Shown here piece by piece: positions 3,275-46,809 of a DNA stretch of 64,000 nt. The notes under the pieces were generated by a model, which was not told the origin of the DNA, did not search any database, and saw only the letters and a list, made by a program, of their open reading frames with translations. Both the position numbers and the translations under genes were made by a program. The DNA comes from Gammaproteobacteria bacterium. GTDB taxonomy: Bacteria > Pseudomonadota > Gammaproteobacteria > Steroidobacterales > XN24. Each line of letters starts with the position of its first letter. The first letter of the stretch is position 1. The stretch spans positions 2,387,527-2,451,526 of the forward strand of contig CP070833.1 in the NCBI GenBank assembly GCA_020341735.1, in the 5' to 3' direction.

Positions 3275-3593
3275 TCGCCTACGGGCGTGCGTCTCCGCAT
3301 CGCCGCGCTCCTCCTGTGCGGCCGTTGTGACCGGCCGTCGCTGGCATACTTTAATGATTCAGGGAGGAAAAACAACGATGATGAAATCACCGCAGGTGCA
3401 GCATTTTCATGCGCTGCCGCGGCACCGCACCGCGGCAGCCCGGATTGCCGGGGCGCATAGCTGGAAGATGATTTCCGCCTGCGACCGCGGTTGCACCGTC
3501 CGTCGGCATTGACCGGGTCCTCATCCACCGGGCAGGCGAAGGCGTCAGGCAAGTGTCGGCGGAAGACATCGCACGCGCGGTATCAGGCGTGAA

Positions 3594-15817: not shown

Positions 15818-16054
15818 ATGCCAAGCCAAGTGTTGCAGAAAGACGGGAATTCTAACCGGCCGAGCCGCCGGTCAGGCAAACCGTGCCGACCCTCCCGGAG
15901 CGATAGCCGACAGAAACATTCGGTAATTTCGACCTATTTACCTCCGTAACGCCTTTGATCTTGGGGTCTGGGAAGAAGACATCCACGGCGCTGAACACAC
16001 GCTGAAGTCTGCAGCCCTCACCTATACTCGCGGACATAGCAGAGGAATCTGTTG

Positions 16055-17422
16055 ATGAAGCGATTCATGGGCGCGCTCGCGACCTACCCGGCTCGGGCGC
16101 TGGCGGGTTGGTACGGCATCCTTGTCGTCTCGGGCACACTTTTGCTCCTGTTACCGGCATGCCGGGCCGCAGACACCTCCCCGATGTCCTTCTCAGACGC
16201 GCTGTTTACAGCGACGAGTGCGGCCTGCGTGACCGGATTGGTGGTCAGGGACGTGGCGGAGTTCTCGGCGCTCGGCCAGGGCGTCATCCTCGCCCTCATC
16301 CAGCTCGGCGGTATCGGCATCATGACCGTCGCAACCCTGGTCGTGGTTCAGCTGACCGGCCGCCAGACCCTGCGGCAGCTGGTCCTGGCGCGGGAGAGCC
16401 TCGGCGTGGGGCTGCACGAGGACCTGGGTCGCGTGCTGGTTCGGGTGATCTCGGTAACCGTCGTTTTCGAACTGATTGGGGCGGTTGTGCTGGCGGCGTA
16501 TCGCGTCTCCGACCTGAGCTTGCCGCAAGCCGCCTGGTGGGGCCTGTTTCACTCCGTTTCCGCATTCTGCAACGCCGGCTTCGCGCTGTCGCCAGACAAC
16601 CTGGCACCCTGGGTGGATAGCGCATTGGTCAATCTGACCGTCATCGGACTGGTCGTGCTCGGGGGTCTGGGGTTCCCTGTCCTGGTCGACCTGTTTTCGC
16701 GCCGCCGGAGTCGGCCGCTGCGCTGGCGAGAATTGCATTTCCATAGCCAGCTCGTCATCACGGCCTCCGCGGCACTGCTGCTGATCGGCACGCTGGCTAT
16801 CCTTGCGCTGGAATATTCCAATGCGTTCGCGGGTCAAGGACTGGCACAGTCCACGATGACCGCGTTTTTTCACAGCGCTTCGGCGCGCACCGCCGGATTC
16901 TCGACGCTGGATATTGCCGGGTTCAGTAACGCGACCCTTTTCGTACTGATTCTGCTGATGTGGGTCGGCGGAGGTCCCGGCTCGGCCGCCGGCGGAATAA
17001 AGGTAACGACGATTGCCGTCCTGGTCCTCTATGGCTACGGGAGAATGCGCGGCCGCCAAGAGATCGGCCTGTTCCACCACCGGATCAGCACCCACTCTGT
17101 AGCGACGGCCGCAGTCGTCGTCATCGCCGGCATCACGCTGATCGTCACCAGTCTCGTGTTCATGCTGATGGCAGAGCAATCAGGAATTCCACACAATGGG
17201 GGCGCCGATTTTCTGGATATCACGTTCGAGACCTTCTCGGCATTTTCGACTGTAGGACTGTCCATGGGCATCACCCCGGAGCTGGGCGAGCTCGGCCGAT
17301 TTATCACAGTGCTTACCATGTACGTCGGCCGCATCGGACCTCTGATAGTGTTTACTCTTCTGTCACGACGGCCCCATGGCCCCGCCATCAGACATCCGGA
17401 AGCGGAGATTCAAATTGGCTGA
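16055..17422 (+). CDS. trkH: TrkH/KtrB-family potassium uptake membrane subunit
   Basis: 455 aa polytopic protein with repeated pore-loop-like motifs (TATSAACVTGL, SAFCNAGF, SARTAGFS, STVGLSMG). Confidence 0.88.
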   Translation: MKRFMGALATYPARALAGWYGILVVSGTLLLLLPACRAADTSPMSFSDALFTATSAACVTGLVVRDVAEFSALGQGVILALIQLGGIGIMTVATLVVVQLTGRQTLRQLVLARESLGVGLHEDLGRVLVRVISVTVVFELIGAVVLAAYRVSDLSLPQAAWWGLFHSVSAFCNAGFALSPDNLAPWVDSALVNLTVIGLVVLGGLGFPVLVDLFSRRRSRPLRWRELHFHSQLVITASAALLLIGTLAILALEYSNAFAGQGLAQSTMTAFFHSASARTAGFSTLDIAGFSNATLFVLILLMWVGGGPGSAAGGIKVTTIAVLVLYGYGRMRGRQEIGLFHHRISTHSVATAAVVVIAGITLIVTSLVFMLMAEQSGIPHNGGADFLDITFETFSAFSTVGLSMGITPELGELGRFITVLTMYVGRIGPLIVFTLLSRRPHGPAIRHPEAEIQIG

Positions 17423-24930: not shown

Positions 24931-25329
24931 TCAGGGCCGGGCATCCAGCGTGACCCGGACCCTGATCCTGTCTCCGGGATCGAAGTCGAGTACACGCGTG
25001 TACTGCACGCCACCATAGCTGTAGTGCACTCGGTAACCGGTGATACGGGTCCGAGACTCGGCGATGCACTGACTACGTTCTGCCTTCTCCATCGCTTGCC
25101 CGATCGCGGCCGCCAGACCGGCGACATCAGACCCGCGCGATGGGACGGTCACTGGTGCACGTTGTTGACCGCAGAGCGGTCGAGTCTTGTCCGCTCTTTG
25201 GTAGGCATCGTCCTTCAGTAATTCCACGGCGGACACCGGCGCGTAATCGTAGAACACCTCCTCGGCCTGAGCCGCGGCACACAGAGCCAGGCCCAGTATC
25301 ACCAGGATACCGCTCGAGACGCTGTTCAT
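24931..25329 (-). CDS. Small secreted protein sharing the C-terminal motif of the YcfJ-like protein (last gene of the envelope operon)
   Basis: Signal peptide MNSVSSGILVILGLALCAAAQA. The C-terminal GYRVHYSYGGVQYTRVLDFDPGDRIRVRV parallels GYRVTYRYAGREYTTRTHEHPGKRIRVRV of the 31127-31684 product. 4-nt overlap with the upstream gene. Confidence 0.65.
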   Translation of the reverse strand: MNSVSSGILVILGLALCAAAQAEEVFYDYAPVSAVELLKDDAYQRADKTRPLCGQQRAPVTVPSRGSDVAGLAAAIGQAMEKAERSQCIAESRTRITGYRVHYSYGGVQYTRVLDFDPGDRIRVRVTLDARP

Positions 25330-26123
25330 CGTCTCCTCCCCGCCAGCGGAAATCCGGCCATCGTCAGGTGCCTGACGCCGGAGTCATACTCCTCTCGGCT
25401 ATCGAAAAGCATCACCACCCGGAAGCGGCCGACATCCTGCCGGAACCAGTCCAGCCTCAGTTCGGGCACACGCTCCTCCAGTACCGCAACGAATGACTCG
25501 GCGCGATAGGGCGCCCTGAACACCGCAACTTCCATCTGTCCATCCGTAACCGGCACGCCCGCCGGCTGCCCAGTCCGCCCGTCGCCCAGCACGTAACGCA
25601 GGTGACGATAGATATAGGCGCTGTACCACCTGGCCCCTTCCGGAATCGGATCACCGTCCGTCCCGATCCGGCCAGGTCCGTAGTTGTAGGCGGCCAGCGC
25701 TCGGTGCAGGTCGCCGTCGTATCGCTGAAGTAACTCTTTGAGGTAACGCGCGCCTGCCTCGACGTTCCTGCACGGTTCGTGCAGTTCTCGTACCCGGCTG
25801 AAGCCGAGGTGCCGACCCGTTCCCGGCCAGAGTATCTGCATCAGCCCGCGGGCATTCGCGGATGACACGGCATCCGGGTTGAAATTGCTTTCCCCCCTGG
25901 CGATGGCGGCAAGCAGGCTTATCGGCAAGTCGTGAGCGGCCGCCGCCCGGCGGAAGCACCGCTCGAAGGGCAGAGATACGGCAGGCTCCAGCTGTGTTTC
26001 AGTGGCGAGAAAGTCCTTCCAGGCCAATCCGGGCCCGCCCGGTCCGATCGCCCGGCCCCAGGCGGTCGATACAGCGACGGAGAGCAGCATGCATCCGAGG
26101 GCCTGAAGGAGCGCGACTTTCAC
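25326..26123 (-). CDS. Lytic transglycosylase (SLT domain) with a C-terminal SPOR-like domain
   Basis: Signal peptide. SLT motifs AIARGESNFNP, ARGLMQI, AAYNYGPG. C-terminal MEVAVFRAPYRAESFVAVLE...GRFRVVMLFDSREE resembles a SPOR repeat. GTG start overlaps the previous stop by 4 nt. Confidence 0.85.
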   Translation of the reverse strand: MKVALLQALGCMLLSVAVSTAWGRAIGPGGPGLAWKDFLATETQLEPAVSLPFERCFRRAAAAHDLPISLLAAIARGESNFNPDAVSSANARGLMQILWPGTGRHLGFSRVRELHEPCRNVEAGARYLKELLQRYDGDLHRALAAYNYGPGRIGTDGDPIPEGARWYSAYIYRHLRYVLGDGRTGQPAGVPVTDGQMEVAVFRAPYRAESFVAVLEERVPELRLDWFRQDVGRFRVVMLFDSREEYDSGVRHLTMAGFPLAGRRR

Positions 26124-26722
26124 AGGTCCCCTCCCTTCAGGCGCAGGCCGCTGATCGACTCTATCTCCTCGATTCGCTTTGCCCGGTCCTCATCCGCGGT
26201 CACCCGGAAAGATATGAGGTACCTCCCGGGCCCGGCCTTGTTCACCCTGAACTCCCTGCCCGTCGACGCTTGCAGGTGGCGCGCAAAGCCGTCGGCCGAG
26301 GCCTGGCTGCGGAAGGCGACGAAAAAAGTTTCCCATTCGGAATCCTTGGCGACCAATTCTGTTTCGTCACCGCGCGATCCCCCCGCGGCGGATGCTGCCC
26401 CGGGTGCCTCGAGTTCTCCTGCCTTCCCCGATGGCCCGGTCGATGTGGTGATGCTGCTCGACTCGCCGATGGACACCCCGCTCGGTGACTCTGCTTCCAG
26501 CCCGGGCCGGATCGAATCCTCGCCTGGCGACATGCCAGACTCAAGGGGGTGAGAGTCAAAGGCCCCTCCCGCCGGCTCGGGCAAAGCCTGTGGCGCAGGT
26601 GGAGCGGAGTCGATCACCACCCGATCCACTTTTGGCGCGGCCCCGATCGATGGGGCCCCGGCCATCAGATATGCAACCAGGCCGGTGAGTGCAGATCCTG
26701 TCAGAAAACCTAGAAAGCGCAT
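26120..26722 (-). CDS. Membrane-anchored protein with a low-complexity linker and C-terminal SPOR-like domain
   Basis: SD GGGAGGAAG then ATG 26722. N-terminal TM MRFLGFLTGSALTGLVAYLMAG. Pro/Ser/Gly-rich linker. C-terminal WETFFVAFRSQASADGFARHLQ...GRYLISFRVTADEDRAKRI (SPOR-like beta-alpha-beta-beta pattern). Confidence 0.7.
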   Translation of the reverse strand: MRFLGFLTGSALTGLVAYLMAGAPSIGAAPKVDRVVIDSAPPAPQALPEPAGGAFDSHPLESGMSPGEDSIRPGLEAESPSGVSIGESSSITTSTGPSGKAGELEAPGAASAAGGSRGDETELVAKDSEWETFFVAFRSQASADGFARHLQASTGREFRVNKAGPGRYLISFRVTADEDRAKRIEEIESISGLRLKGGDL

Positions 26723-26744: not shown

Positions 26745-28157
26745 TCAGGGCTTGCCGGCCATACGGATGTCTGCCGGCGATGGGGTCGCCAGACCGCGCC
26801 ACACGATCTGGTTCGGGAAACTCTCCAGGCGGCGTTCGAGCGTTCGGAGTCGCGCCCGTGCCGGCGCGCCGCGCAGCCGCATGGGGTCGCAGCTCGCAGG
26901 AACTGCGGCGACTTCCGATGCAAGCGCATCGCCGGCTCGCTCCGTCTGCGCTCCGATAGCGAAAATCATGATCCGCTCGTCCGCTGCGGATGGCGGCAGG
27001 GTCAGACGGACCAGTTCGCCGTCCGCCGTGACCGACCCGGTGCCACAGCGTTCCGAATCCAGCCGTTGCAATCTGCCATCGCCAAGCACCATCAGGACCT
27101 CCAGTCGCTCAAGCTTGCCGGGCCTGACCTGGAGTGCGGGTTGCAGCGGCGATTGGCAAAACTCTTGTCCGCAACGTTGCCTGAGAAGGACGAAGCGGAC
27201 CTCTTCCAGCGCAGGGGGATCGGGCCGCGCCGGGACAGGGGGTCGAGACCGATCTCGCGGTTTGCTGCTGGCATAGGCGGACGCCCTGATGCTCGGCAGT
27301 TCGTCGGCTGGCCTGGTTGGCGCAAGACCGATCCAGACCTGCTCGAGGCCCTCGCCGAGGCGATGCCGCTCGGCAGTCATCACCAGGTCGGCATCAGACT
27401 CGCCGGTCGCGTGACGAATCAACCCCAGCCGACCGAGGTACTGGGACACCATGGTGGCCGCAGGCTGATCCCCGACGTCGGTCTTTTGCATGTTGATCCA
27501 TACGCGGGGCCTGTCCGCGGGATGGGCAAGCAACGCACACGCGACGGTGCGAGCAATTTCGGCCGCCAACAGATCCTCTTGATCAGCCGCGAAGGGAAGC
27601 CCACGCTGACCTCTCAGGTCATCACGGATTCCAGGCGTATCAAACCGCTCGCTGTCCTTGCGCGGGAGCACGCCGCTCCACTGGCGTGAGATGCCACTGA
27701 CCCAGCTTCGCTCTTCCAGGTCGAGAACTCGTACGCGTACGCGCACCTGCTGACCGCGGACCCGTGTCGCATCGAGTGCTATCAGATAACTTTCCTCGGG
27801 TGGCTGGCAGTGCAGATCGGTAGCCGTCGAACCACGCCGAAACTCGGGTGGCATGGGCCGCAACGCGATCTTTACGCCGGATCGGGCACCCAGCGCGCCC
27901 TCCAGATTGGCGGCCAGATCGGTCGATAACAGATCCGGCCTGGGGTGCTCGTCGTCGCCGTCGAATACCGTTACGCGGATGGGCTCGCCTTTGAAGCGCG
28001 GGTGGGTAGCCATGGTTTCGGTCAGCCACGGCGTCAGTTCTTCATCGAACCATCGGTCGAGGTCGGTCACAGCCAGCACAGGATTGGCCAGGAGCGCCAG
28101 GGCCATGACCAGTAGACTGCGGGGGAAAGCCGATATCGACCATGCTCTACCCATCAT
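26745..28157 (-). CDS. Secreted 470-aa hypothetical protein (periplasmic component of the envelope operon)
   Basis: SD GGGAGGTGA then ATGATG. Signal peptide ...LLVMALALLANPVLA/VT. No family recognised. 11-nt overlap with the upstream gene. Confidence 0.7.
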   Translation of the reverse strand: MMGRAWSISAFPRSLLVMALALLANPVLAVTDLDRWFDEELTPWLTETMATHPRFKGEPIRVTVFDGDDEHPRPDLLSTDLAANLEGALGARSGVKIALRPMPPEFRRGSTATDLHCQPPEESYLIALDATRVRGQQVRVRVRVLDLEERSWVSGISRQWSGVLPRKDSERFDTPGIRDDLRGQRGLPFAADQEDLLAAEIARTVACALLAHPADRPRVWINMQKTDVGDQPAATMVSQYLGRLGLIRHATGESDADLVMTAERHRLGEGLEQVWIGLAPTRPADELPSIRASAYASSKPRDRSRPPVPARPDPPALEEVRFVLLRQRCGQEFCQSPLQPALQVRPGKLERLEVLMVLGDGRLQRLDSERCGTGSVTADGELVRLTLPPSAADERIMIFAIGAQTERAGDALASEVAAVPASCDPMRLRGAPARARLRTLERRLESFPNQIVWRGLATPSPADIRMAGKP

Positions 28158-28851
28158 TCACCTCCCGGGTGACGTTGCCGGTGGCATCGATCACCAGCAC
28201 GCCGCCACCGCCCTTCGCCAGGTGATCCCGTAGCGCGGCGACCGTTCTGCCGGGAAGGGTCACACCCCATAGCGCGTCATCCGGGCCGGGGTAGCTGGCG
28301 CGCAGGAGTGTCGGGATAGTCTCCGGCGCCATTCTGTAAAAAGCCTCCGGTGCCGTTGCAGAAACGAAATCGACGCCGCGCCGCAGGTCCAGCCGCCGCA
28401 CTCCTGCCGCCGTCGCCACGAAAACAGCAGCTTCGCCGCGGGATACCATGCGCAGCAAGGCAGCGTCGGAAGCGAAACGCAGGAGCAGCCCCTGCTCTGC
28501 CGGTTGCGCCTCGTCAAGCTTGACCGCCGGCGACCTGGCCACGCTGACTTCAGGCATGGGCGCGGAACGCTTCTCCGCCGCCGGCATCGATCGAGTCTCC
28601 AAGGGTTCGACCACTGGTTCGGGTGGCGCCCGCCTCTGGGCGGTCGCCGCTTGGGGCGCTTCCGTCGCGACGACGGATTCCACAGGAACCGGCGACTGAT
28701 CGACCGGTTGTCTTGAGTGCTCCACCAGGCTCGATATCGCCACCAGGCATAGCGCCAGTATGGCCACGAACCGCATGACGTCGGCCTGTAGTTCCGTATC
28801 CGGCAGGCTCGCCGGCCCAGCATTGCCGATTGAGGATCGGGACTGCATCAT
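28147..28851 (-). CDS. Single-pass membrane protein with an ExbD/TolR-like N-terminal anchor, Pro/Ala-rich linker and unknown C-terminal domain
   Basis: SD GGAGGAG then ATGATG, overlapping the stop of the MotA/ExbB-like gene by 4 nt. ...LQADVMRFVAILALCLVAISSLV places Asp24 in a DVM context like ExbD ...FIDVMLVLLIIF. Linker: VPVESVVATEAPQAATAQRRAPPEPVVEP. Confidence 0.65.
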   Translation of the reverse strand: MMQSRSSIGNAGPASLPDTELQADVMRFVAILALCLVAISSLVEHSRQPVDQSPVPVESVVATEAPQAATAQRRAPPEPVVEPLETRSMPAAEKRSAPMPEVSVARSPAVKLDEAQPAEQGLLLRFASDAALLRMVSRGEAAVFVATAAGVRRLDLRRGVDFVSATAPEAFYRMAPETIPTLLRASYPGPDDALWGVTLPGRTVAALRDHLAKGGGGVLVIDATGNVTREVNDG

Positions 28852-29477
28852 CGCTCCTCCGCCCTGGTCTCCGGTGTTGCAAGCCGACGCTCGATGCCCG
28901 ACACGCTCACTCGCAGCGCGGCCAAATCCCTGTTTTGCTCCCGCTCGTAGTAGCGGGCAAGATCTGCACCGATGCTGAGTGCCTTCCAGGCCCGCATCAG
29001 GTAGCCACCGATGCCGCCGACGATGGTCGTCGAGAGCGCCAGCAAGATGCCACCGTCGACCATGCGCTCGAGTACCTGGACTCCACCCGATGCGCTGTCT
29101 GAAAGGCCCTCGACCAGGGCTCCACGCATCCCGATCGCCGTCCAGATAACGCCGACGCCGAAGAACAGACTGGTCCAGATGTCTGACAGATGATCGGCCT
29201 GTCTGACCGTCTCCGCCGGCGCCCGCCTGTCGATCGCGTGGCGGAGGCGCACGAGGCTGACGGCGAACAGCACCAGCAACATCAGGAAAGCCGGAATCGA
29301 GTACCCCAGGTTATGCCAAAGCCAGCTGACGGAGAGCCCGAAGGCATCTGTCATAACTGGAACGGCGTGCAAAGCTGCAGCCCCGTCCGGCACCCGCACG
29401 ACCAGGAGCGAAACCAGGGCGGAAGTCACTACCCCCGCCGACATGCCGATCAGGAAGTCCCTGGGTCGACTCGACAT
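28848..29477 (-). CDS. MotA/TolQ/ExbB-family proton-channel (stator-like) protein
   Basis: SD AGGAG then ATG 29477. 209 aa with four hydrophobic segments. Family-like signatures: IWTSLFFGVGVIWTAIGM (compare GLLGTVxGM) and GILLALSTTIVGGIGGYLM (compare ALxTTaxGL). C-terminal charged helix. Confidence 0.75.
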   Translation of the reverse strand: MSSRPRDFLIGMSAGVVTSALVSLLVVRVPDGAAALHAVPVMTDAFGLSVSWLWHNLGYSIPAFLMLLVLFAVSLVRLRHAIDRRAPAETVRQADHLSDIWTSLFFGVGVIWTAIGMRGALVEGLSDSASGGVQVLERMVDGGILLALSTTIVGGIGGYLMRAWKALSIGADLARYYEREQNRDLAALRVSVSGIERRLATPETRAEER

Positions 29478-29486
29478 AACTGACTC

Positions 29487-30038
29487 CTATCGACCGCCGG
29501 CGACGCAGGCTCGGCAGGTCGCCTCCAGGACCAGTTCAGTTTCTTTCAGCAATCTGTCTGCCCGGTAGTAACTCTCCCGATCGAGAGCCGCCTGCAGCAG
29601 ACCCCGTTCCTTGTCGGCCAGCTCGCTCTCCATATCCGCCATTACGCGTCCCTTGATGGGACAGGTCTGGGCGCAATTGTTGTAGTCCCCACGCAGTGAA
29701 ACGAACTTCACATTGAAGTACCGATTCCAGGTCTCCTGGGCCTGCCGGCGACTCAGCAATCCCTGGTCGCTGGTCCACAACAGGAAGTTGCTGAAGGCCT
29801 GCTTGTTGTCAGCGGTCGGGTCCCCGGCCGCCACGTCGATCAGTTGATCCATGTAACGATCGAAATGGGCCACGCAGCCGCCATCGAGTCGGGATTCGGC
29901 AGAAGCGATGGCCGCCGTCAGGTCGCGAGTTCCGGAAAGTTCGCACTTTGGCGTTGGCGTCGTGGCACACCCGGAAACAGCACCGATCGCTGTGAACAAG
30001 ACCGCGAGCGCGGCAGCCAATCTTGTGATATTCATCAT
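29487..30038 (-). CDS. Cys-rich lipoprotein, unknown function
   Basis: SD GAGAGGTGG then ATGATG at 30038. Lipobox MMNITRLAAALAVLFTAIGAVSGC. Seven further Cys residues in the mature part (PKCE, GGCV, NNCAQTCP, ATCRAC). Confidence 0.7.
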   Translation of the reverse strand: MMNITRLAAALAVLFTAIGAVSGCATTPTPKCELSGTRDLTAAIASAESRLDGGCVAHFDRYMDQLIDVAAGDPTADNKQAFSNFLLWTSDQGLLSRRQAQETWNRYFNVKFVSLRGDYNNCAQTCPIKGRVMADMESELADKERGLLQAALDRESYYRADRLLKETELVLEATCRACVAGGR

Positions 30039-30054
30039 GACATCCACCTCTCTG

Positions 30055-30894
30055 TCACCATTCCAGCGGGCTTTGATACGCCACCTCGCCGGCCCCCGGA
30101 GGCGGCCCGGCCAGTTCGACAACCTGCCCGGCCTCACCGAACAGGATCGATTTCACCCCGTCCACGACGGCCTGCATCTCCGGCGTGATAACGCCGAAGG
30201 ACTGATTGAGTTCCTCCAGCAAGGTCGCGCGCCCAATCTCCTCACGCGTCTGCGCGATCAGTGCGGAGGCTTCTTCCATGTCGAGGTAGATATCCGAGGC
30301 GACTACGGCTAGCGAGTGACCCGTGTTTCGCCCGGGCTGGGCGACGAGCTGGTAGTACTGGCGGAATCGCTGAGAAAGCCGCAGACCGGACCTGCCACGC
30401 AACTCTGGCTCGACGTTCGTTGACCCGTCGGGTTGCTGGCCGAGCAGCGTTTCCTGGAGCGTCCATGGCGTCATCTTCAGGCCCAGTTCGGCGCGCAGAC
30501 GCGTCTCCAGGCTGTCGCGCGTACTGTTGACGGCGCGCTCCATGTCCGGGAGGCGTTGAGACATGGTCTCCAACATCTCCATGTATGTCGCACCGAGCTG
30601 CCTGGATATCTGGGCGCAGCCCGGATCGTCGGTGGCGCCCTCGCATTTGCTCTGGATGTATAGCTGCTGCTGTCGATCCAGCCGGGCGATGATATCCTGC
30701 AGGCCGCTCTCCATCTCCTCGGCGACCTGACCTGTCTCTTTGATGTCCTCCAGCACGGTCGTGGGAAAAAGCTGGAGTGCAGGTCCCCGCGCCGCGCCCG
30801 TCAATAGCGGTAGTGTCGAAATAATGCATGCGGTGGCCATAGCCAGAGACGGCGCACCGTCGCGGCCGTTCCCGCATCGAGCATTCGGTTTCAT
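30055..30894 (-). CDS. Secreted, predicted alpha-helical hypothetical protein (first gene of the envelope operon)
   Basis: SD GGGAGG 5 nt before ATG 30894. Signal-like MATACIISTLPLLTGAARG. Glu/Gln/Leu-rich helical sequence. No family recognised. Confidence 0.65.
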   Translation of the reverse strand: MKPNARCGNGRDGAPSLAMATACIISTLPLLTGAARGPALQLFPTTVLEDIKETGQVAEEMESGLQDIIARLDRQQQLYIQSKCEGATDDPGCAQISRQLGATYMEMLETMSQRLPDMERAVNSTRDSLETRLRAELGLKMTPWTLQETLLGQQPDGSTNVEPELRGRSGLRLSQRFRQYYQLVAQPGRNTGHSLAVVASDIYLDMEEASALIAQTREEIGRATLLEELNQSFGVITPEMQAVVDGVKSILFGEAGQVVELAGPPPGAGEVAYQSPLEW

Positions 30895-30957
30895 CTAAGC
30901 CTCCCATGGCCCGGCGGGCCCTTCCTGTCGGCGAGACACAAAAGTAGCCCCGCCAAC

Positions 30958-30974
30958 CTGAACCGACGCTGAAC
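30958..30974 (-). promoter_or_regulatory. PhoP box (GTTCAG-N5-GTTCAG on the minus strand) upstream of the envelope operon
   Basis: The plus strand reads CTGAACcgacgCTGAAC, a perfect direct repeat with 11-bp phasing. On the minus strand it is followed after 11 nt by TACTTT (TAnnnT, -10-like, 30946-30941). It lies 64 nt upstream of ATG 30894. Confidence 0.7.
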
Positions 30975-30994
30975 GACCGGGAAACCCTGCGCGC

Positions 30995-31022
30995 CGCGAG
31001 TGGCGCATGTTTTTCACTCGCG
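30995..31022. repeat. Perfect 8-bp inverted repeat CGCGAGTG-N12-CACTCGCG between the two PhoP boxes
   Basis: Read directly from the sequence. Possible operator or hairpin; function unknown. Confidence 0.4.
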
Positions 31023-31037
31023 CGAGATCCTCTTCAC

Positions 31038-31054
31038 GTTCAGCTTCGGTTCAG
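31038..31054 (+). promoter_or_regulatory. PhoP box (GTTCAGcttcgGTTCAG) upstream of the ycfJ-like / PepSY / phoPQ unit
   Basis: Perfect direct repeat, followed after 10 nt by TAGTCT (TAnnnT, 31065-31070). It lies 73 nt upstream of ATG 31127. It mirrors the box at 30958-30974. Confidence 0.7.
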
Positions 31055-31126
31055 GCCGCATGCGTAGTCTGGGAATCGCGAGGCGGGAGATCCCGGCTCA
31101 ACGGACAGCAGAAGAGGAGCACAAAG

Positions 31127-31684
31127 ATGATCCGCAAGACTCTCGTCCTGATGACGGCCGCCGCGGCGGTCGCCTTACCTTCCCTGGCCCTGGCCGGCCA
31201 TGATGGTTACCAGTACGCCAAAGTAGTGGACGTCGAACCGGTCTATCGGTACGTGAGCTACCAGGTTCCACAGAGAGAATGCTGGACAGAGGTCGAATAC
31301 GAACCACGGCCACGTGCCAGACACCGGACAAGTTCCACTCTGCCGACGATCGCGGGTGGCATTGTCGGTGGCGTTGTCGGCCGGCAGTTCGGCAGCGGCA
31401 GAGGCCGGGACGCCATGACCGTACTTGGCACCCTGATTGGCGCCGCCGTAGGCCACGACGCGAGCCATCGCACCAGCACCAGACACGCTGACTACGAGTA
31501 TGGCCGCAGCCGTGGTTATGAGGTTGAGCGCTGCGAAACTCGTTACATCACTCAGGAGGATCGGGAAATTGACGGCTATCGCGTCACTTACCGATATGCG
31601 GGCCGCGAATATACGACCAGGACGCACGAGCATCCCGGCAAGCGGATCCGTGTCCGGGTCGACGTGACACCGGCCGTCGCGTAA
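31127..31684 (+). CDS. YcfJ-like glycine-zipper 2TM-domain protein
   Basis: SD AGAGGAG then ATG 31127, then a signal peptide. Collinear with E. coli YcfJ as I recall it: YQYAKVVDVEPVY...PQRECW...IAGGIVGGVVGRQFGSGRGRDAMTVLGTLIGAAVG...RCETRY...GYRVTYRYAGREY...RIRV. Confidence 0.78.
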   Translation: MIRKTLVLMTAAAAVALPSLALAGHDGYQYAKVVDVEPVYRYVSYQVPQRECWTEVEYEPRPRARHRTSSTLPTIAGGIVGGVVGRQFGSGRGRDAMTVLGTLIGAAVGHDASHRTSTRHADYEYGRSRGYEVERCETRYITQEDREIDGYRVTYRYAGREYTTRTHEHPGKRIRVRVDVTPAVA

Positions 31685-31762
31685 ACCGATCGGGCCGTCA
31701 GCTCAACGTTTCATGCAGGGATGAAATTGCGTTGCCCCCACGCATGTCTGACAATGCCATGC

Positions 31763-32068
31763 ATGTCCCGAACCCTGCTGATAGCAGCGATGCTGGCGGT
31801 CCTGATCGCTTCCTCCCCGGCCTGGAGCGCGGTGCGGCCGGACTCTTCCGCTCATCACGCCCAGGCCTCCACATTTCGGCCTGCCGCGGATGAGGTTTCA
31901 CTCGACGAGGCCATTCGCACCGTCCGGGATGCCTACGGCGAAGTCACGATCCTGAAAGCAGAGACCCGTGGTCGTAACGGCCGGCGTGTCCATCGAGTCA
32001 AGTTCCTCACTGATTCCGGACGGGTGAAGACCGTCGAGGTCGATGCCCGTACCGGGGATCTCCGTTGA
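31763..32068 (+). CDS. PepSY-domain periplasmic protein
   Basis: Signal peptide MSRTLLIAAMLAVLIASSPAWSA. C-terminal LDEAIRTVRDAYGEVTILKAE...HRVKFLTDSGRVKTVEVDARTG is PepSY-like. Ends 4 nt before phoP. Confidence 0.7.
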   Translation: MSRTLLIAAMLAVLIASSPAWSAVRPDSSAHHAQASTFRPAADEVSLDEAIRTVRDAYGEVTILKAETRGRNGRRVHRVKFLTDSGRVKTVEVDARTGDLR

Positions 32069-32072
32069 GTCG

Positions 32073-32756
32073 ATGCGTGTCCTTGTCGTAGAGGACGAAG
32101 AAGCGCTGCGCGCCAGCATTGTCGCCGAGCTGCGCGGGCACGGCTATACCGTCGATGAGGCGTCTGACGGCGAGGAAGGACACTATTTCGGATCCGAATT
32201 CCATCCGGACGTCGCCATCGTTGATCTCGGCCTGCCTCGCCTTCCCGGCCTCGAGCTCATTCGCCGCCTCCGCGGCGAGGGACATGACTTCCCCATCCTG
32301 ATACTGACGGCCAGGGGACGGTGGGAGGAGAAAGTTGATGGACTCGAAGCGGGTGCCGACGACTATGTCGTCAAACCATTCCACATGGAGGAACTGCTGG
32401 CGCGGCTGAACGCTCTCCTGCGGCGCGCTGGGGGCTGGGCAAGCCCACGGCTGTGCAGCGGTCCGGTAAGCATCGACACCCGCGCCCAGACGGTCAGCGT
32501 GTCCAAGCGGCCAGTAGAGTTGACCGCCTTCGAGTATCGCCTGCTCGAATGCCTGCTGATGCGGACAGGTGAAGTCGTCTCCAAGACCGAGCTGACAGAG
32601 CGTCTCTACGAGCAGGATTTCGACCGCGATTCGAATGTCATCGAAGTCTTTGTAGGACGACTGCGCCGTAAGCTGGACCCTGACGGCAATCTGCGTCCTA
32701 TCGAAACTCTTCGCGGCAGAGGGTATCGATGGAGGCTCCCCAGGGAAAGCGCATGA
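32073..32756 (+). CDS. phoP: OmpR-family response regulator, PhoP-like
   Basis: MRVLVVEDEEALR...DVAIVDLGLP...FPILILTARGRWEEKVDGLEAGADDYVVKPFHMEELLARLNALLRR...NVIEVFVGRLRRKL...RGRGY. Very close to Pseudomonas PhoP as I remember it. PhoP boxes lie nearby. Confidence 0.8.
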   Translation: MRVLVVEDEEALRASIVAELRGHGYTVDEASDGEEGHYFGSEFHPDVAIVDLGLPRLPGLELIRRLRGEGHDFPILILTARGRWEEKVDGLEAGADDYVVKPFHMEELLARLNALLRRAGGWASPRLCSGPVSIDTRAQTVSVSKRPVELTAFEYRLLECLLMRTGEVVSKTELTERLYEQDFDRDSNVIEVFVGRLRRKLDPDGNLRPIETLRGRGYRWRLPRESA

Positions 32757-34114
32757 AAGTGGGCGGATCACTGAGCACTCGGGTGCTGACCGCAGCTACC
32801 TTGTTGCTGATGATCTTCTTCGGACTCGCATTCGCGGCTCTCGATATCGCATTCAGGCGCGCAGCCGAGCGGTCGCTGGAAGACGTGCTCGAGTCCCAGG
32901 TCCTGGGTCTGCTCGCCGCCGCAGACCCCGATCAGTCGGGTATGCTCAACCTGCCGCCAGACCTGCCGGAGCCGAAATTTTCTCGTCCGGGATCGGGCCT
33001 TTATGGTCGCCTCATCGATGACCAGGAAGAGACCGTCTGGATCTCCCGATCTGCGGTCGGCATGCGACTGCCGGCCTTCATACCAGCCACGCCCGGGCGC
33101 ATCGAATTTAGGCGTTTTTCGCTTGCCGACGGTACGGATCTGATGAGCGCAGCTCTCCGGATAGAGTGGGAATTCAGCGACGGACAGCTTGCGCCTTTCG
33201 TGTTCAGTGTCTCAAGCAGCCTGGACAGCCTGATGGCACAGGTGCGCCGTTATCGAAACTGGCTGAGCGGCGGATTCGCCGCCCTGGTTTTGATCCTGAT
33301 CGGTGCCCAGATTCTGGTGCTGCGCTTCTTGTTGCGGCCGTTACAACAGGCCGAAGAAGAAGTCCGTGAAATCGAGGCCGGCGCCAGACGGCGTCTGAGC
33401 GAGGGTTACCCGACGGAGATCGAGGCGCGGTCGAGCAGCGTCAACATGCTGATCGACAGCGAACGAGCACGCAGCGAGCGCTACCGTGAATCGCTGGATA
33501 ATCTCGCTCACAGTCTGAAGACGCCGCTGGCGGTCATTCGCACCCAGGCCGAGTCGCCGGACCGGATCGATCCGGATATCGTCGAGGAACAGGTCGCCAC
33601 CATGCAAGGAATCGTCGACTACCAGTTGCAGAGAGCCACCACCGGAGGCGCCCCTCTCGGCCGCAAGCACACGAAAGCCCTGCCCCTCGCCCGGTCGCTG
33701 CTCGACGCATTGAGCAAGGTCTATCGTGAGAAGCCGGTGCGGATAGACCGGGACCTCGAGTCGGATGCGGTGTTCCCCGGTGGTCGCGGCGACCTGACGG
33801 AGATCCTCGGTAACCTGCTCGACAACGCATTCAAGTTCTGCCGTCAACGGGTCCGTCTGTGCATCAGCACTGGATCTGCGGCGGTCGGCACTGGCGGGGG
33901 AATAGAGATCCTGGTCGAGGATGATGGCCCGGGACTTCCGGATACGAACTCGCCGAGGCTGCTCGAGCGGGGTGTGCGGGGCACTCAGAGGGCTCCCGGT
34001 CAGGGGATTGGACTGGCCGTGGTGCGGGATATCGTCGAAGCCTACGGGGGCGAGATCACTCTGGCGAGATCCACGCTCGGCGGCGCTGCTATCCGCGTGA
34101 CAATAGGTACCTGA
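32753..34114 (+). CDS. phoQ: Sensor histidine kinase, PhoQ-like
   Basis: ATGA start/stop overlap with phoP. Two TM segments flank a periplasmic domain. H-box LDNLAHSLKTPLAV. N, G1 and G2 boxes (LGNLLDNAFKF, VEDDGPGL, GQGIGLAVV). Confidence 0.8.
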   Translation: MKVGGSLSTRVLTAATLLLMIFFGLAFAALDIAFRRAAERSLEDVLESQVLGLLAAADPDQSGMLNLPPDLPEPKFSRPGSGLYGRLIDDQEETVWISRSAVGMRLPAFIPATPGRIEFRRFSLADGTDLMSAALRIEWEFSDGQLAPFVFSVSSSLDSLMAQVRRYRNWLSGGFAALVLILIGAQILVLRFLLRPLQQAEEEVREIEAGARRRLSEGYPTEIEARSSSVNMLIDSERARSERYRESLDNLAHSLKTPLAVIRTQAESPDRIDPDIVEEQVATMQGIVDYQLQRATTGGAPLGRKHTKALPLARSLLDALSKVYREKPVRIDRDLESDAVFPGGRGDLTEILGNLLDNAFKFCRQRVRLCISTGSAAVGTGGGIEILVEDDGPGLPDTNSPRLLERGVRGTQRAPGQGIGLAVVRDIVEAYGGEITLARSTLGGAAIRVTIGT

Positions 34115-34130: not shown

Positions 34131-35027
34131 TCAGGCCGAACGATTGACTTGTCGCGGCGGATCAGCCCTGCAGGCACGCTCCAGCTGGAAAGCTATCAGC
34201 TCCTGCCGTTTGCGATCGAGTACAGATGAGCCCTGCAGCAGTTTGGCTGCTTCTTTTGGGTTAACTACCGACACCGAGCCGTCGCCCCTCCTGTCGACGA
34301 ACCAGCCTGGCAGCGAGAGCACCGGCGTCACGGGCACATCTTCGCCCAGCCTGGCGCGTAGCCAGTTGCTCAGCCATTTCGCCTGCCGTCCAGCCTTATC
34401 CAGGTAGCCGGTGTCCGAATGGCTTGGAAAGCTCAGACGGTGACCATCGAACAGGACCGTAGCGTCCTCGGCACCGCGACCCCGGTCCGAACGCAATTGC
34501 GCCTTTGTTTCTACCGCCAGGACGCCGGTCGGCCCGATGACGACGTGATCGATATTGGATCCGGCGGCGGGGACGTCATGGAATATACGGCAGCCATGGC
34601 GCATGAGCCTGTCCAGCTCCTGACCCGTTGCCAGCTCGCCGTCCAGTCCCATTCGGATGGCACGCAGGGACCGGTAATTGTAGAGCGTCCGGCTTAACAG
34701 GAAGAGAAATCCGCCGACACCTGCAACCATGTAGAGCATCGCCAGTTCCAAGCCGGCCGCATCGGGATTCCATTTCTGTACTGACAGCCACATGCTGTAA
34801 AACCACAGAGGCACGAACAGGCCGAAGCCGAAAGACAGGGCAAGCTCGAGCTGCAGCTCTTCGAGACGACGCTGCAGACTGAAGCCTGCAGGCCGCAGGA
34901 AATCCCTGTTGAACGGTGACTTGCGACGACGAAGACCTTCGGCATGGCGGAGCGCGTTTATCATCACGAGGATGATGAGCATCGGCAGTATCGCTGCTCC
35001 TGCCGGAACCAGTATCGACGAATCCAT
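34131..35027 (-). CDS. Membrane-anchored NERD (nuclease-related) domain protein
   Basis: Three N-terminal TM segments, then GELATGQELDRLMRHGCRIFHDVPAAGSNIDHVVIGPTGVLAVETKA (NERD-like core). Start chosen at an internal ATG (MDSSILV...). Confidence 0.7.
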   Translation of the reverse strand: MDSSILVPAGAAILPMLIILVMINALRHAEGLRRRKSPFNRDFLRPAGFSLQRRLEELQLELALSFGFGLFVPLWFYSMWLSVQKWNPDAAGLELAMLYMVAGVGGFLFLLSRTLYNYRSLRAIRMGLDGELATGQELDRLMRHGCRIFHDVPAAGSNIDHVVIGPTGVLAVETKAQLRSDRGRGAEDATVLFDGHRLSFPSHSDTGYLDKAGRQAKWLSNWLRARLGEDVPVTPVLSLPGWFVDRRGDGSVSVVNPKEAAKLLQGSSVLDRKRQELIAFQLERACRADPPRQVNRSA

Positions 35028-35158
35028 ACGGCTGCGTTCCCGTCTCTTGGCGACGACGACACACGCCGGCATCGCAGATTTTCAAGCCGAGAGTGTATCC
35101 ACTGGACATAATCAGGGTCTGTGCGCCAGATCACACGACAGGAAAATCGTGTCGCGGT

Positions 35159-36421
35159 TCAGGATTGGTCGGATTTCGTTTCTTCAGTCGAGCATTCGGC
35201 CGGCAGCCGGATGGTGAAAGTCGACCCCTTCCCCGGCTCGCTGTCGACAAACAGATCGCCGCCGAGCAGACGGCAAAACCTCCTGCTGATCGCGAGCCCC
35301 AGGCCGGTGCCACCATACTTCCGGCTGGTCGAATTATCTGCCTGAGTGAAGGCGTTGAACAGCTTGTTGGCCTGCTCCGGCGACAAGCCAATGCCGGTAT
35401 CCGACACCGCCAGGCTGATCCAATCTCGCCCCTCCTGCATCGTCCTGCTTGCGGTGATGCCAACGGTGCCCTGGTCGGTAAACTTGGCCGCGTTGCTAAG
35501 CAGATTGAACAAAGCCTGGCGCACCTTTATCAGGTCAACATAGGCGGTGCCTATATCCGGTGGGCAATCGACGATCAGATCGTTGCCGTTCTTCTCCACA
35601 AGTGGCTGTATCGTACCGACGACGCCCTCAACCAGCTCGGCAATATCGACGTCCTCACGAAATATCGTCATCCGGCCAGCCTCGATCTTGGAAAGATCGA
35701 GTACATCGTTAATCAGGGCCAGCAAGTGCTCACCCGCCTGGTGGATCTTTTTCAGATCCGGTATGAGGTCCTCCTGCTCGAGATCCTCCAACTCCTCCTG
35801 AACCATCTCGCTGTAACCGAGGATGGCGTTCAGGGGCGTCCGCAGTTCGTGGCTCATATTCGCGAGGAACGAGCTCTTGGCCTTGTTGGCTTCCTCCGCA
35901 GATTCCCGCGCTTCCTCCAGCTCTGCCGTGCGGTGCGCTACCGTCTCCTCCAGTTCCTCCTGGTGTCGGCGCAGTTCCGCATTGGCATCCTGGATCTCCT
36001 CCATGAGTTCGTCACGGCTCCTTCTGCCCATGATTGCGAGGAGGCTCTCCTGGACCTCTGGAGTCAGACCGGTCGCGGCAAGTGGCATGCGTCGCACCGC
36101 CCTGATTACATAGCCGCTGTCGCCATCGGCGCCGACGTTGAATTCATCAAAGAGGCCATTCGACTGGGGAATATTTCCAGGCGGAGCGGTCGCCGCGAAG
36201 ACCATCTCGAGATCGATACCCGAGTCATCAGACAGGACCGCAATCCTTAGTGACGAGGCCGGCGTCTCGTCGACGAGCAGCCGTGCGATCTCGGAGGTGA
36301 TCATTTGCAGACGAGCGGTCGTGATCGCATCTGCCCCAAGAGTCCTGGCCACGTCGCGTAGCTTGTGCCGCGCCCAGTGGACACTCTCCGGACTGATGAG
36401 CCTGACATCGCCCAGTCTCAC
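35159..36421 (-). CDS. Soluble histidine kinase (no TM, no receiver domain); output kinase of the stressosome operon
   Basis: GTG start overlaps the PP2C stop (GTGA). About 130-aa unknown N-terminal domain, then a coiled coil. H-box [23 protein letters not shown]. HATPase N/G boxes ([24 protein letters not shown]). Confidence 0.85.
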
Positions 36422-37008
36422 TGACGACCCACCTTGACTGCTATACAGGCGGCGTCGTCATAGTCCTTGCCGAATAGCTCGACGATGTTGCGGGCGATCG
36501 AGGAAGGCGTATCGCTTATCAAGTGCCTGTAGTCCGCCAACTCGAAGCGATCCTTCACGCCGTCGGTATAAAACAGCAGCGTGTCGCCGCAATCCAGTTG
36601 CAGTGTCTGGGGTGTGCTGCGGCGGAGATGCGCTCCCACCGTGCCGTCTTTGGAGACCAGCCGGGTGGCGCGCCGCCAGACTCTCCTCGCAGCGGTGTTG
36701 CCGACACCGACGTATTCCATCTCGCCCTTGTCGGGGAGGATACGGGCCAGCCCGACCGCGGCACCCCGCCCACCCTTAAGCCGGGCGTGCAGCGTCTCGA
36801 TGATCGTCAGCAGATCTGTTTCCTCGGTGTCGTTGAGATACTCGGCAATTCCCTTGGCGACCACGTTGGCCTCCGCACCGTGGCCCAGAACATCGACGAT
36901 GGCCACCAGCAATGCCTCGCCTACGTCTCTGACAACCGCCAGATCACCCCCGGAAGGCTCGCCGAACATCGGCCTGACCCAGGTGCCGAACTGCAGATTC
37001 AAAGCCAC
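36418..37008 (-). CDS. PP2C/SpoIIE-family phosphatase, RsbX-like
   Basis: The proposed GTG at 37008 overlaps the rsbT stop and gives about 196 aa. SGGDLAVV...[10 protein letters not shown]...YVGVGN...LLFYTDGV...[10 protein letters not shown]. The start is uncertain; the track ORF extends to 37323. Confidence 0.75.
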
Positions 37009-37400
37009 TTCCTGATCGTGACACGGGTGCCGGCGCCCGGTTCGGTCTTGATATCGAAATCGTCCATCAGTCGGCGCACGCCGGGGAGACCCAGCCCCAG
37101 TGTCCGTCCCGTGCTGTACCGATCCTCCATGGCCTTCTCTATGTCTGTAATTCCGGGCCCCTGGTCCTGGGCTCTGATCTCGATGCCGGCGCCCCTGGGG
37201 GCCGACACGCGAAGCAGGATGATCTCGCCCTGGCCGGCGTATTTGACGATGTTGCGCGCCAGCTCGGAAACGGCGGTGGCGACTCTGCAACTGGTACTGA
37301 CATCGAAACCGGCTTCCTGGCATTGCTGCCTGGCTCGCATTATGGCTACGGCCACATCACTCTCCTGGCCAATCCGAATGTGTCTTGGTCTGTCAGACAC
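36999..37400 (-). CDS. rsbT: RsbT-like serine kinase (GHKL anti-sigma-type kinase)
   Basis: GGAGGG then GTG at 37400, overlapping the rsbS stop. IRIGQESDVAVAIMRARQQCQEAGF...ELARNIVKYAGQGEIIL...DQGPGI...GLGLPGVRRLMDDFDI. Confidence 0.8.
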   Translation of the reverse strand: MSDRPRHIRIGQESDVAVAIMRARQQCQEAGFDVSTSCRVATAVSELARNIVKYAGQGEIILLRVSAPRGAGIEIRAQDQGPGITDIEKAMEDRYSTGRTLGLGLPGVRRLMDDFDIKTEPGAGTRVTIRKWL

Positions 37401-45550: not shown

Positions 45551-46594
45551 TTATGCCGGCGGCGCAACGCCGCCGGCTTCTTCCTTGAGATATCGCCCTG
45601 GCGACTTCCCTGTCCAGCGTCTGAACGCCCGACTGAACGTACTCTGATCCGAGTATCCCAGCAGGAAGGCTGCCTGCCCGATCGAGCGGCCTTCGTCAGT
45701 GAGTAACTTCTCCGCCAGACCGCGCCTGGTCTCCTCCAGCAGGTTCCTGAAATTCGTGCCTTCCTTTCGCAGATCCCTCTGCAGGCTGCTCACGCTGCGA
45801 TTCAATCGGTGGGCTATCTCCCGTTCTGTTGCGTTCCCGGAAGACAGCAACTGGGTGAGCAACTCGCGTACCTTTGCTACTACCTCAGCTTCGTCCACCT
45901 GCGCCAGCATCCTGGCCAGCCATTTGTCGGCCTCGCCGGCCAGCTCCGGATTACCGGCAGGAAGCGGCTGCCTGATGTCCCCTATCTGCAGCGCTATCGC
46001 ATTCTCCCCGGCTCCGAACTCGACCGGAGCCTGGAACCATTCCTCATACCTCAATCGCTGACCGGGGTCCGGCCTCTTCAGGCGGACCCAGATCGGAGCA
46101 AAGTCTTCTGTCGATGCCCGGCGGCACATGGCGATCAGTGCAGCCAGGCTTGCTTCTCCAAGCATGATCGGGAAAGGCTCTACCCCGCCGGCCGCATCGA
46201 AACTGTAGACGGCGAGTCCGTGCTCGGCGCGCCGCTGGAATACTGCAGCCGTGCTTGCAACGCGGTGATAGCGTAACCACCGGTCGAGCGCATCCTCTAG
46301 CGTGCTGCTGGCCAGCCAGGCGAAACCCAGAACCTGAGTATTACCAGGCCGGAGATGCCGGCCCACAACCAGCCCGAGACAGGGATCACCAGTGCATTGC
46401 GCCGCTTCCTGCCAGAGTTTTCGGAGGGCAGAGAACGGATAGCGGGCACCGGCCTTGCCGATCATGCTCGGATCCAACCCGGCCCGGATGAAGAGAGGCC
46501 GCGGGTCGACCCCGTAATGCCGCTCCAGCGTCTCTGCCAGAGCGCCGGACATGCTGGCGAGAGAGGTAGGCTCGTTGCGCGGACCCGAGGTCAT
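45551..46594 (-). CDS. AraC-family transcriptional regulator (N-terminal ligand-binding domain, C-terminal HTH)
   Basis: C-terminal ...REIAHRLNRSVSSLQRDLRKEGTNFRNLLEETRRGLAEKLL...IGQAAFLLGYSDQSTFSRAFRRWTGKSPGRY. Start chosen at an internal ATG. Confidence 0.82.
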   Translation of the reverse strand: MTSGPRNEPTSLASMSGALAETLERHYGVDPRPLFIRAGLDPSMIGKAGARYPFSALRKLWQEAAQCTGDPCLGLVVGRHLRPGNTQVLGFAWLASSTLEDALDRWLRYHRVASTAAVFQRRAEHGLAVYSFDAAGGVEPFPIMLGEASLAALIAMCRRASTEDFAPIWVRLKRPDPGQRLRYEEWFQAPVEFGAGENAIALQIGDIRQPLPAGNPELAGEADKWLARMLAQVDEAEVVAKVRELLTQLLSSGNATEREIAHRLNRSVSSLQRDLRKEGTNFRNLLEETRRGLAEKLLTDEGRSIGQAAFLLGYSDQSTFSRAFRRWTGKSPGRYLKEEAGGVAPPA

Positions 46595-46809
46595 CGTGCT
46601 CGTAAGTGCACATTGTCTGACAGCGAAGCGCAAGGCTTTTCTGCAAACGTTCCCCGTGCATGAGTATCTGCGGCTGCTCCCAAGCGCCCGGAGGCCGCAG
46701 TCTCTCGCGGTCGTTGCGAGGAGCCGTGGGAACATCGACCTCCCGGCCAGATGGGTCGCGACGACGTTCGTTTGCTGTCGCGACCGCTCGCTAAATGCTC
46801 ACGCCTCTA

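Follow-up and report, generated by a model that had tools for sequence, protein, structure and literature searches.

Mirror-oriented PhoP boxes between a phoPQ unit and a divergent eight-gene envelope operon: candidate PhoP-activated promoters in an uncultured gammaproteobacterium

The stretch of DNA analysed here (64 kb of contig CP070833.1, referred to below as the window) comes from an uncultured gammaproteobacterial metagenome-assembled genome (MAG) and contains a 232-bp divergent intergenic region at positions 30895-31126. On its left side lies the ATG of an eight-gene envelope operon (30894, minus strand, Shine-Dalgarno sequence GGGAGG), and on its right side the ATG of a ycfJ-like gene (31127, plus strand, Shine-Dalgarno sequence AGAGGAG), which is followed by a PepSY-domain gene, phoP and phoQ. 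An initial annotation of this DNA had noticed two GTTCAG-N5-GTTCAG repeats between the two start codons and had suggested that the PhoP-like regulator encoded nearby controls both transcription units. The question raised by this locus is whether the repeats are working regulatory sites and, if so, which protein reads them and with what effect on transcription. We propose, with considerable confidence, that they mark two independent activator-dependent promoters at which PhoP would stand in place of the -35 element.

The two repeats are located at 31038-31054 on the plus strand (GTTCAGcttcgGTTCAG, in the promoter of the ycfJ-like/PepSY/phoP/phoQ unit) and at 30974-30958 on the minus strand (GTTCAGcgtcgGTTCAG in the minus strand reading, in the promoter of the envelope operon). 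Inspection of the sequence and a pattern search agreed that both are perfect and mirror-oriented as annotated, each being a direct repeat of RTTCAG hexamers with a 5-nt spacer and thus 11-bp phasing. When both strands of the whole window were searched for GTTCAG-N5-GTTCAG, these two were the only exact matches. The expected number is 0.02, and a count of two was not obtained in any of 100 dinucleotide-preserving shuffles; the earlier impression, gained by eye, that the window holds no further copy was thus correct. The TAnnnT hexamers that had been described 10-11 nt behind the boxes were also read at both sites. Predicted -10 element TAGTCT (31065-31070, plus strand) lies 10 nt (gccgcatgcg) after the plus-strand box, and predicted -10 element TACTTT (30941-30946, minus strand) lies 11 nt (gttggcggggc) after the minus-strand box; counted from the GTT(T/C)A core, the spacers are 11 nt on the ycfJ side and 12 nt on the operon side. 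From these positions, transcription would start at about 31077 (plus strand, 5' untranslated region of about 50 nt) on the ycfJ-like side and at about 30934 (minus strand, 5' untranslated region of about 40 nt) on the envelope operon side. A composite pattern of box, spacer and -10 hexamer gave one match on the operon side against none expected. A scan of 30700-31300 for a sigma-70 -35/-10 consensus found no promoter, as expected if an activator replaces the -35 element at both promoters. When up to two mismatches were allowed, 12 sites were found in the window compared with 3.97 expected, the additional near-boxes all being located within long open reading frames (ORFs) with the exception of 15991-16007.

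Are such boxes kept in relatives? Homologues of the first gene of the envelope operon were found in at least 288 genomes in a scan that took one genome per species, and 80 of the 288 loci carrying this gene were fetched as a comparison set of 846 kb (these and the other fetched loci of relatives are given L-numbers below). Nearly all of the 80 loci come from Woeseiaceae or from MAGs of unclassified Gammaproteobacteria, with 59-91% protein identity in operon gene 1. Among the 79 loci with any DNA upstream of the gene 1 homologue, 78 carry a box with no more than two mismatches to GTTCAG-N5-GTTCAG, always on the sense strand; the remaining locus (L026), in which no box was counted, has only 140 nt of sequence before the gene. 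By chance, such a site would occur about 0.03 times per 500 bp, as scaled from the count in the window. Alignment of the 78 operon-side promoters on their boxes gave the consensus RTTCAG-N5-RTTCAK, an invariant 11-nt spacer and a TAgcgT -10 hexamer, in which T at +28, A at +29 and T at +33 are conserved in 90%, 97% and 97% of the promoters, respectively, and the flanks (25 nt upstream and all positions past +34) carry about 0.1 bit per position. Searching both strands of the 80 loci for exact RTTCAG-N5-RTTCAK gave 91 matches, compared with about 0.2 expected at equal base frequencies; 88 of them lie within the promoter regions of the envelope operon or phoPQ, and the other three at phoP units (two in L024 and one in L018). 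The operon-side box is kept whether or not a second box exists, and in about 68 of the 80 loci the boxed envelope operon has no phoP gene within 6 kb; adjacency to phoP is therefore not required.

The phoPQ side shows the same footprint. A divergent ycfJ-like/PepSY/phoP/phoQ unit is present in ten loci (L001-L008, L012 and L016), and every one of them has a second, opposite-strand box with a TAATCT-like hexamer 10-11 nt behind it (variants TAATCT, TAATGT, TAGTGT and TAAGGT; CAGTCT in L012 and L016). Counted from the start of the box, the ycfJ ATG is 89 nt away both in the window and in L001-L008. The distance between the two boxes varies: seven loci (L003, L005-L008, L012 and L016) have a gap of 5 bp, and the others one of 26, 35 or 63 bp, the last value being that of L001 and of the window. 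From box to start codon, the window and its closest relative, L001, are about 95% identical on each side, and they have diverged between the boxes. The variable gap and the unconserved inter-box DNA thus point to two separate back-to-back promoter modules and not to one symmetric operator. In the seven genomes with the 5-bp gap, the four half-sites stand at 11-bp phasing and form a 39-bp palindromic block about 100-170 nt upstream of operon gene 1.

Boxes also precede phoP-type operons that lie apart from the envelope operon. In L024 a box is found upstream of a ycfJ/PepSY/phoP unit 4 kb from the envelope operon, and in L018 upstream of a ycfJ-like/phoP pair whose phoP is co-directional with the envelope operon. 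A further search of metagenomes, started from a PhoP profile, yielded mixed OmpR-family loci among the matches listed and so provides supporting examples and not frequencies. It added units with a box, 11-12 nt and TAnnnT before a phoP-type operon (among the listed matches with the highest similarity to PhoP, L088, L089, L096, L099, L105, L106, L109, L110 and L140), including ycfJ/PepSY/phoPQ units with no envelope operon nearby. Overall, at least 20 independent loci carry the same motif with the same geometry at a phoP-type operon. We conclude that the two boxes are very likely functional regulatory sites. The wiring suggested in the initial annotation, i.e., autoregulation of the phoPQ unit together with co-activation of the envelope operon, gains strong support from the footprint on both sides (78 of 79 and ten of ten loci) and from the separately boxed phoP operons, and as a prediction it is as well backed as comparative sequence data can make it.

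As to the protein that would read these sites, the motif itself gives a first indication. The PhoP consensus in Pseudomonas aeruginosa is GTTCAGNNNNNRTTCAG (PMC3156716), and chromatin immunoprecipitation sequencing of P. aeruginosa PhoP gave the motif G/ATTCAG (PMC7916210); the GTTCAG repeat with 11-bp phasing, cited in the initial annotation, matches both reports. The spacing between box and -10 element fits 'architecture I' in Salmonella (PMC3335776) and two Pseudomonas oprH promoters. One of these, at a locus with napEFD-oprH-phoP-phoQ synteny, reads GTTCAGcccggGTTCAGcaagcGTTCAGgggcgGTTCAG followed by 11 nt and TACTCT; at the second oprH-phoPQ locus, a GTTCAG half-site is followed by 11 nt and TAACCT. 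The oprH-phoPQ operon of P. aeruginosa is similar to the local unit in its identical half-site and 11-bp phasing, and in the placement of an envelope-protein gene ahead of phoPQ in the same autoregulated operon. There are also differences: Pseudomonas has two tandem boxes (four half-sites) facing in one direction, whereas here each promoter has one box and the two face in opposite directions; the genes for a YcfJ-like glycine-zipper protein and a PepSY protein take the lead here in place of the OprH porin gene; and a second promoter here drives an unrelated eight-gene operon.

Zwir et al. described architecture I as a single direct box located 12 nt upstream of the -10 element (11 nt in yrbL), with predicted class II activation, and regarded it as characteristic of ancestral targets such as phoP, mgtA and slyB (PMC3335776). 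Both local promoters fit this class, sharing the single direct box and the lack of a -35 element with the phoP P1, mgtA, slyB, pmrD and yrbL promoters. The Escherichia coli phoP P1 promoter, for example, consists of GGTTTAtttaaTGTTTA (TGTTTA half-site), 12 nt and CATAAT. The enteric promoters differ in the half-site, which is (T/G)GTTTA there and RTTCAG here, and the recognition helix of the regulator differs at several positions. A divergent arrangement is also known from Salmonella pagC-pagD, in which each unit has its own PhoP box and independent activation has been proposed (PMC3335776); unlike the two simple architecture I promoters here, pagC and pagD, assigned to architectures V and IV, each have two boxes, which are reverse or distal.

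The candidate regulator is a PhoP-type OmpR-family response regulator (32043-32756, plus strand; likely start ATG 32073, MRVLVVEDE) encoded 1 kb from the boxes, and it is the sole OmpR-type response regulator in the window. Among NCBIfam models PhoP ranks top with 227.7 bits, followed by RppA (198.6) and PhoB (189.8). Aligned with E. coli PhoP over the full length without gaps, the protein shows 46% identity; with Pseudomonas-group PhoP proteins, which were retrieved with a PA1179-like query and then compared as database sequences, identity is 51-54%. The recognition helix is RDSNVIEVFVGRLRRKL in the local protein, RDPNVIEVLVGRLRRKL in Pseudomonas-group PhoP (P0253, P0277) and RESHTIDVLMGRLRKKI in E. 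coli, where the helices compared are those of close Pseudomonas-group relatives and the GTTCAG motif was determined in P. aeruginosa. Because the local helix matches that of Pseudomonas PhoP, the PhoP protein of P. aeruginosa would be expected to act on both promoters in that species.

The next gene (32729-34114, plus strand) encodes a PhoQ-type sensor histidine kinase that has two transmembrane segments, with about 145 amino acids (aa) in its periplasmic domain; PhoQ is its best NCBIfam model. When its catalytic domain was compared with solved structures, PhoQ was found at an expect value (E) of 1.5e-29 and the next kinase at 4e-13. The kinase aligns along its full length (residues 14-459) with a Pseudomonas PhoQ at 35% identity, and from the second transmembrane segment to the C-terminus with E. 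coli PhoQ at 37% identity, the latter alignment being confined to residues from 177 onward. On the basis of sequence comparison, the local pair is orthologous to PhoP/PhoQ and has a Pseudomonas-type recognition helix, although the protein identity to the Pseudomonas pair, 51-54% for PhoP and 35% for PhoQ, adds a further difference from the oprH-phoPQ locus.

With regard to the signal, the enteric PhoQ_Sensor domain (PF08918), which E. coli PhoQ matches with a score of 2.7e-87, gave no match in the local kinase, a difference from the enteric sensor; a Pseudomonas PhoQ also gave no match to PF08918. The periplasmic domains of the local kinase and Pseudomonas PhoQ align weakly (29% identity over 83 residues, pairwise E 1e-5). 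Pseudomonas-type PhoQ reportedly does not have the acidic patch tied to peptide sensing (PMC4473727). Low divalent cations are a plausible signal by homology of the kinase to Pseudomonas PhoQ. The link to cationic-peptide stress that the initial annotation had also drawn is not supported.

The unit downstream of the plus-strand box begins with a gene (31127-31684, plus strand) for a YcfJ-like glycine-zipper 2TM protein with a signal peptide (PF05433, E 1.2e-9, residues 73-112). Its best NCBIfam model is PRK11280 (YcfJ) and not SlyB, at 79.5 bits under a cut-off of 99, and its N-terminus, MIRKTLVLMTAAAAVALPSLALAGHDG, has a hydrophobic segment with no lipobox cysteine, so that it does not have a SlyB-type lipoprotein signal. 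The second gene (31721-32068, plus strand) encodes a small secreted PepSY-domain protein (PF03413, E 1.3e-6) with a signal-peptide-like N-terminus. In the P. aeruginosa BqsRS/CarRS operon, small secreted PepSY-domain proteins are likewise co-transcribed with an OmpR-family regulator and a kinase; the reported BqsR site is TTAAG-N6-TTAAG, unlike the RTTCAG-N5-RTTCAG found here, and the local proteins score best as PhoP and PhoQ. In a comparison of ten enteric species, phoPQ and slyB were the only loci universally activated by PhoP (PMC2650801). According to the abstract of a bioRxiv preprint, slyB belongs to the glycine-zipper 2TM lipoprotein family, and in P. aeruginosa, too, it is among the direct targets of PhoP (PMC7916210). 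The pairing of phoPQ with a glycine-zipper 2TM gene in the enteric core regulon is thus found here too, with the gene at the head of the phoPQ operon, and of the YcfJ type with no lipobox.

The mechanism that we propose on these grounds is as follows. Each box would bind one phosphorylated dimer of the PhoP-type regulator, whose gene lies 1 kb away. Because the box would occupy the -35 position, 10-11 nt upstream of a weak TAnnnT -10 element, PhoP bound there would bring in RNA polymerase directly, acting as a class II activator of architecture I. The rightward promoter would drive the ycfJ-like/PepSY/phoP/phoQ unit, giving positive autoregulation, and the leftward promoter would drive the eight-gene envelope operon. 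We infer PhoP binding, activation rather than repression, the transcription start positions and the signal from the comparisons given above.

Several observations weigh against this reading. The 227.7 bits of the regulator fall below the NCBIfam cut-off of 336 for the enteric PhoP equivalog. The -10 hexamers TACTTT and TAGTCT are weak, and both were assigned from position alone. The boxes in relatives were found with the pattern itself, and conservation within the box is therefore partly by construction; strand, spacer length and -10 hexamer constitute independent evidence because they were not selected by the box search. Many metagenomic PhoP-like loci with 50-60% identity have no box within the fetched DNA, so that autoregulation through the RTTCAG motif is not universal; among the listed regulators below about 47% identity, a box was found in L129 only.

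The boxes might be bound by another OmpR-family regulator, encoded elsewhere in the genome, with the same or an overlapping specificity. OmpR-family paralogues can have common half-site preferences, and the roughly 68 boxed loci among 80 in which phoP is not found within 6 kb would be compatible with such a protein. We nevertheless consider it improbable, since the same motif and geometry precede the phoP-type operon itself in the 20 or more independent loci mentioned above, the recognition helix of the local regulator is that of Pseudomonas PhoP, the motif is identical to the one determined by experiment for P. aeruginosa PhoP, and no second OmpR-type regulator is encoded in the window.

PhoP might also bind as proposed and yet repress one or both promoters by occluding RNA polymerase, which would turn the autoregulation negative. 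A site that overlaps a promoter can repress in principle, and P. aeruginosa PhoP does repress retS and rsmZ through PhoP boxes; those repressing boxes, however, are located between the -10 element and the start codon (PMC3156716), whereas the local boxes lie upstream of the -10 element, at the -35 position. Neither local promoter has a -35 consensus, and box and -10 element are spaced as in the activated oprH, phoP, mgtA and slyB promoters, all of which makes repression improbable in our estimation. The third alternative, that the repeats are a chance or non-regulatory feature such as an inverted repeat from a mobile or repetitive element, could draw on the fact that the two boxes form a 19-nt inverted repeat (95% complementary, with 61 nt separating the arms), and is effectively refuted by the comparative data, given the 0.02 matches expected, the lack of other copies in the window, the maintenance of the boxes as separate modules across gaps of 5-63 bp of unconserved DNA, and the presence of the operon-side box in 78 of 79 loci regardless of a second box.

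If PhoP activates both promoters as we propose, the regulatory logic is already known: the PhoP box at the -35 position, the autoregulation and the envelope gene heading the phoPQ operon are textbook features. The novelty lies in the organism and in the target operon, which is tightly conserved and in which six of the eight products have no recognisable domain. The wiring leads to a hypothesis about when this operon would be expressed, namely when PhoPQ is active, probably under divalent-cation limitation or envelope stress. It would also exemplify a PhoP regulon that differs in its conserved core from that of enteric bacteria and still keeps the pairing of phoPQ with a glycine-zipper gene. 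On the wider proposal, that the operon represents a previously undescribed envelope system and that, throughout Woeseiaceae and related uncultured Gammaproteobacteria of marine sediments, it is a fixed part of the core PhoP regulon, we are evenly divided. Woeseiaceae-like bacteria are very abundant in marine sediments. If the proposal is true, PhoP in this clade would control envelope remodelling with no enteric or Pseudomonas counterpart, and the conserved box would offer a direct experimental handle on the envelope system.

The envelope operon consists of eight tightly packed or overlapping genes running leftward from 30894 down to 24931, and all eight products have an N-terminal signal or anchor segment. 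Genes 1-7 are largely kept across the 80 loci wherever the fetched DNA extends far enough. Genes 1-6 gave no Pfam or NCBIfam match, even at permissive thresholds, and family profiles of genes 1-5 gave no match among the sequences of solved structures. Gene 1 (30055-30894, minus strand) encodes an all-helical protein of 279 aa with a signal or anchor segment and has 1708 homologues, mostly in uncultured Gammaproteobacteria and Woeseiaceae. A ClyA-like pore-former was considered for gene 1 and rejected: the AlphaFold2 model is an all-helical bundle with a predicted local distance difference test score (pLDDT) of 76, and its Foldseek matches are non-significant (E about 0.1, template-modelling (TM) scores of 0.3-0.38). 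Gene 2 (29487-30038, minus strand) encodes a predicted lipoprotein of 183 aa with lipobox AVSG|C and conserved cysteines.

Gene 3 (28848-29477, minus strand) encodes a membrane protein of 209 aa with four hydrophobic segments (AlphaFold2 pLDDT 84). Its GxxxTAIGM and ALSTTxxGG motifs suggested a MotA/ExbB/TolQ relative, and this assignment failed in sequence, profile and fold tests: one of 53 family members matches PF01618 (E 0.43), hhalign of the family with E. coli TolQ, ExbB and MotA gave a probability of 0.2%, and Foldseek placed TolQ, ExbB, MotA and ZorA on top with non-significant values (E 0.2-3, TM-scores 0.25-0.33). Gene 4 (28147-28851, minus strand) encodes a single-pass membrane protein of 234 aa with a Pro-rich linker and a conserved C-terminal domain, gene 5 (26745-28157, minus strand) a secreted protein of 470 aa with conserved cysteines, and gene 6 (26120-26722, minus strand) an N-terminally anchored protein of 200 aa. 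Gene 7 (25326-26123, minus strand) encodes a lytic transglycosylase with a signal peptide and an SLT domain (PF01464, E 3.7e-28). In a Pseudomonas locus (L166, 800-1999, plus strand), an SLT_2/PG_binding_1 lytic transglycosylase gene stands directly upstream of oprH-phoPQ, a resemblance to the local operon that may be coincidental. Gene 8 (24931-25329, minus strand) encodes a secreted protein of 132 aa whose C-terminal 50 residues resemble the C-terminus of the YcfJ-like protein (46% identity over 50 residues, BLASTP E 5e-9). Gene 8 has no glycine zipper, and tblastn matches of the gene 8 and YcfJ-like queries coincide in L018, L026, L038 and L075.

Other elements were noticed within the intergenic region and its counterparts. 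Between the two boxes there are an 8-bp inverted repeat (CGCGAGTG/CACTCGCG) and, at 30991-31022 on the plus strand, a terminator-like hairpin GCGCCGCGAGTGGCGC followed by ATGTTTTT; both were dismissed, as neither is kept in L001. Several ycfJ leaders (31071-31126, plus strand, in the window; L001-L008, L012, L016, L024, L088, L089 and L140) can form a stem-loop near the predicted 5' end, with stem sequences that vary among genomes, e.g., GCGATGGGGagatCCCCGTCGC in L003. A conserved regulatory RNA in this leader was rejected (z-scores from +0.45 to -2.45; alignment consensus of -3.4 kcal/mol with messy, weak covariation), and an Rfam search of the leader gave no credible match; the hairpin may serve to stabilise the mRNA or have no role at all.

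In L018 (4453-5974) the co-directional order is box, ycfJ-like gene (no glycine zipper), phoP, operon-side box and envelope operon. The operon-side box has two mismatches and lies inside the 3' end of the phoP ORF, and phoP is not followed by phoQ. L024, a Chromatiales MAG, has a further box, GTTCAGgggggATTCAG, at 2807-2823 (plus strand), divergent from the ycfJ/PepSY/phoP unit. It precedes an ORF (2885-3358) for a secreted, extremely His/Arg-rich protein of 157 aa, which is a possible additional member of the regulon.

Downstream of the phoPQ unit in the window, the gene for a NERD-domain protein (34131-35072, minus strand) is convergent with phoQ. It is followed at 35159-37323 (minus strand) by a histidine-kinase-like ORF and then a PP2C/SpoIIE-type phosphatase-like ORF, both recognised by eye from their translations and apparently unrelated to the boxes. 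Among the near-boxes, the pair at 45610-45649 (minus strand, one and two mismatches) was set aside as a coding coincidence inside the C-terminal helix-turn-helix region of an AraC-family gene (45551-46735, minus strand; peptide ...GYSDQSTFSRAFRRWTG...). The near-box at 15991-16007 (minus strand, CTTCAGcgtgtGTTCAG, one mismatch), the sole other intergenic one in the window, is flanked by a PP-loop gene (15008-15817, minus strand) and a TrkH-family cation transporter gene (16055-17422, plus strand). In direct orientation, towards the PP-loop gene, it has no TAnnnT 10-12 nt further on; with respect to trkH its orientation is reverse, and it stands 15 nt upstream of TATACT (16023-16028).

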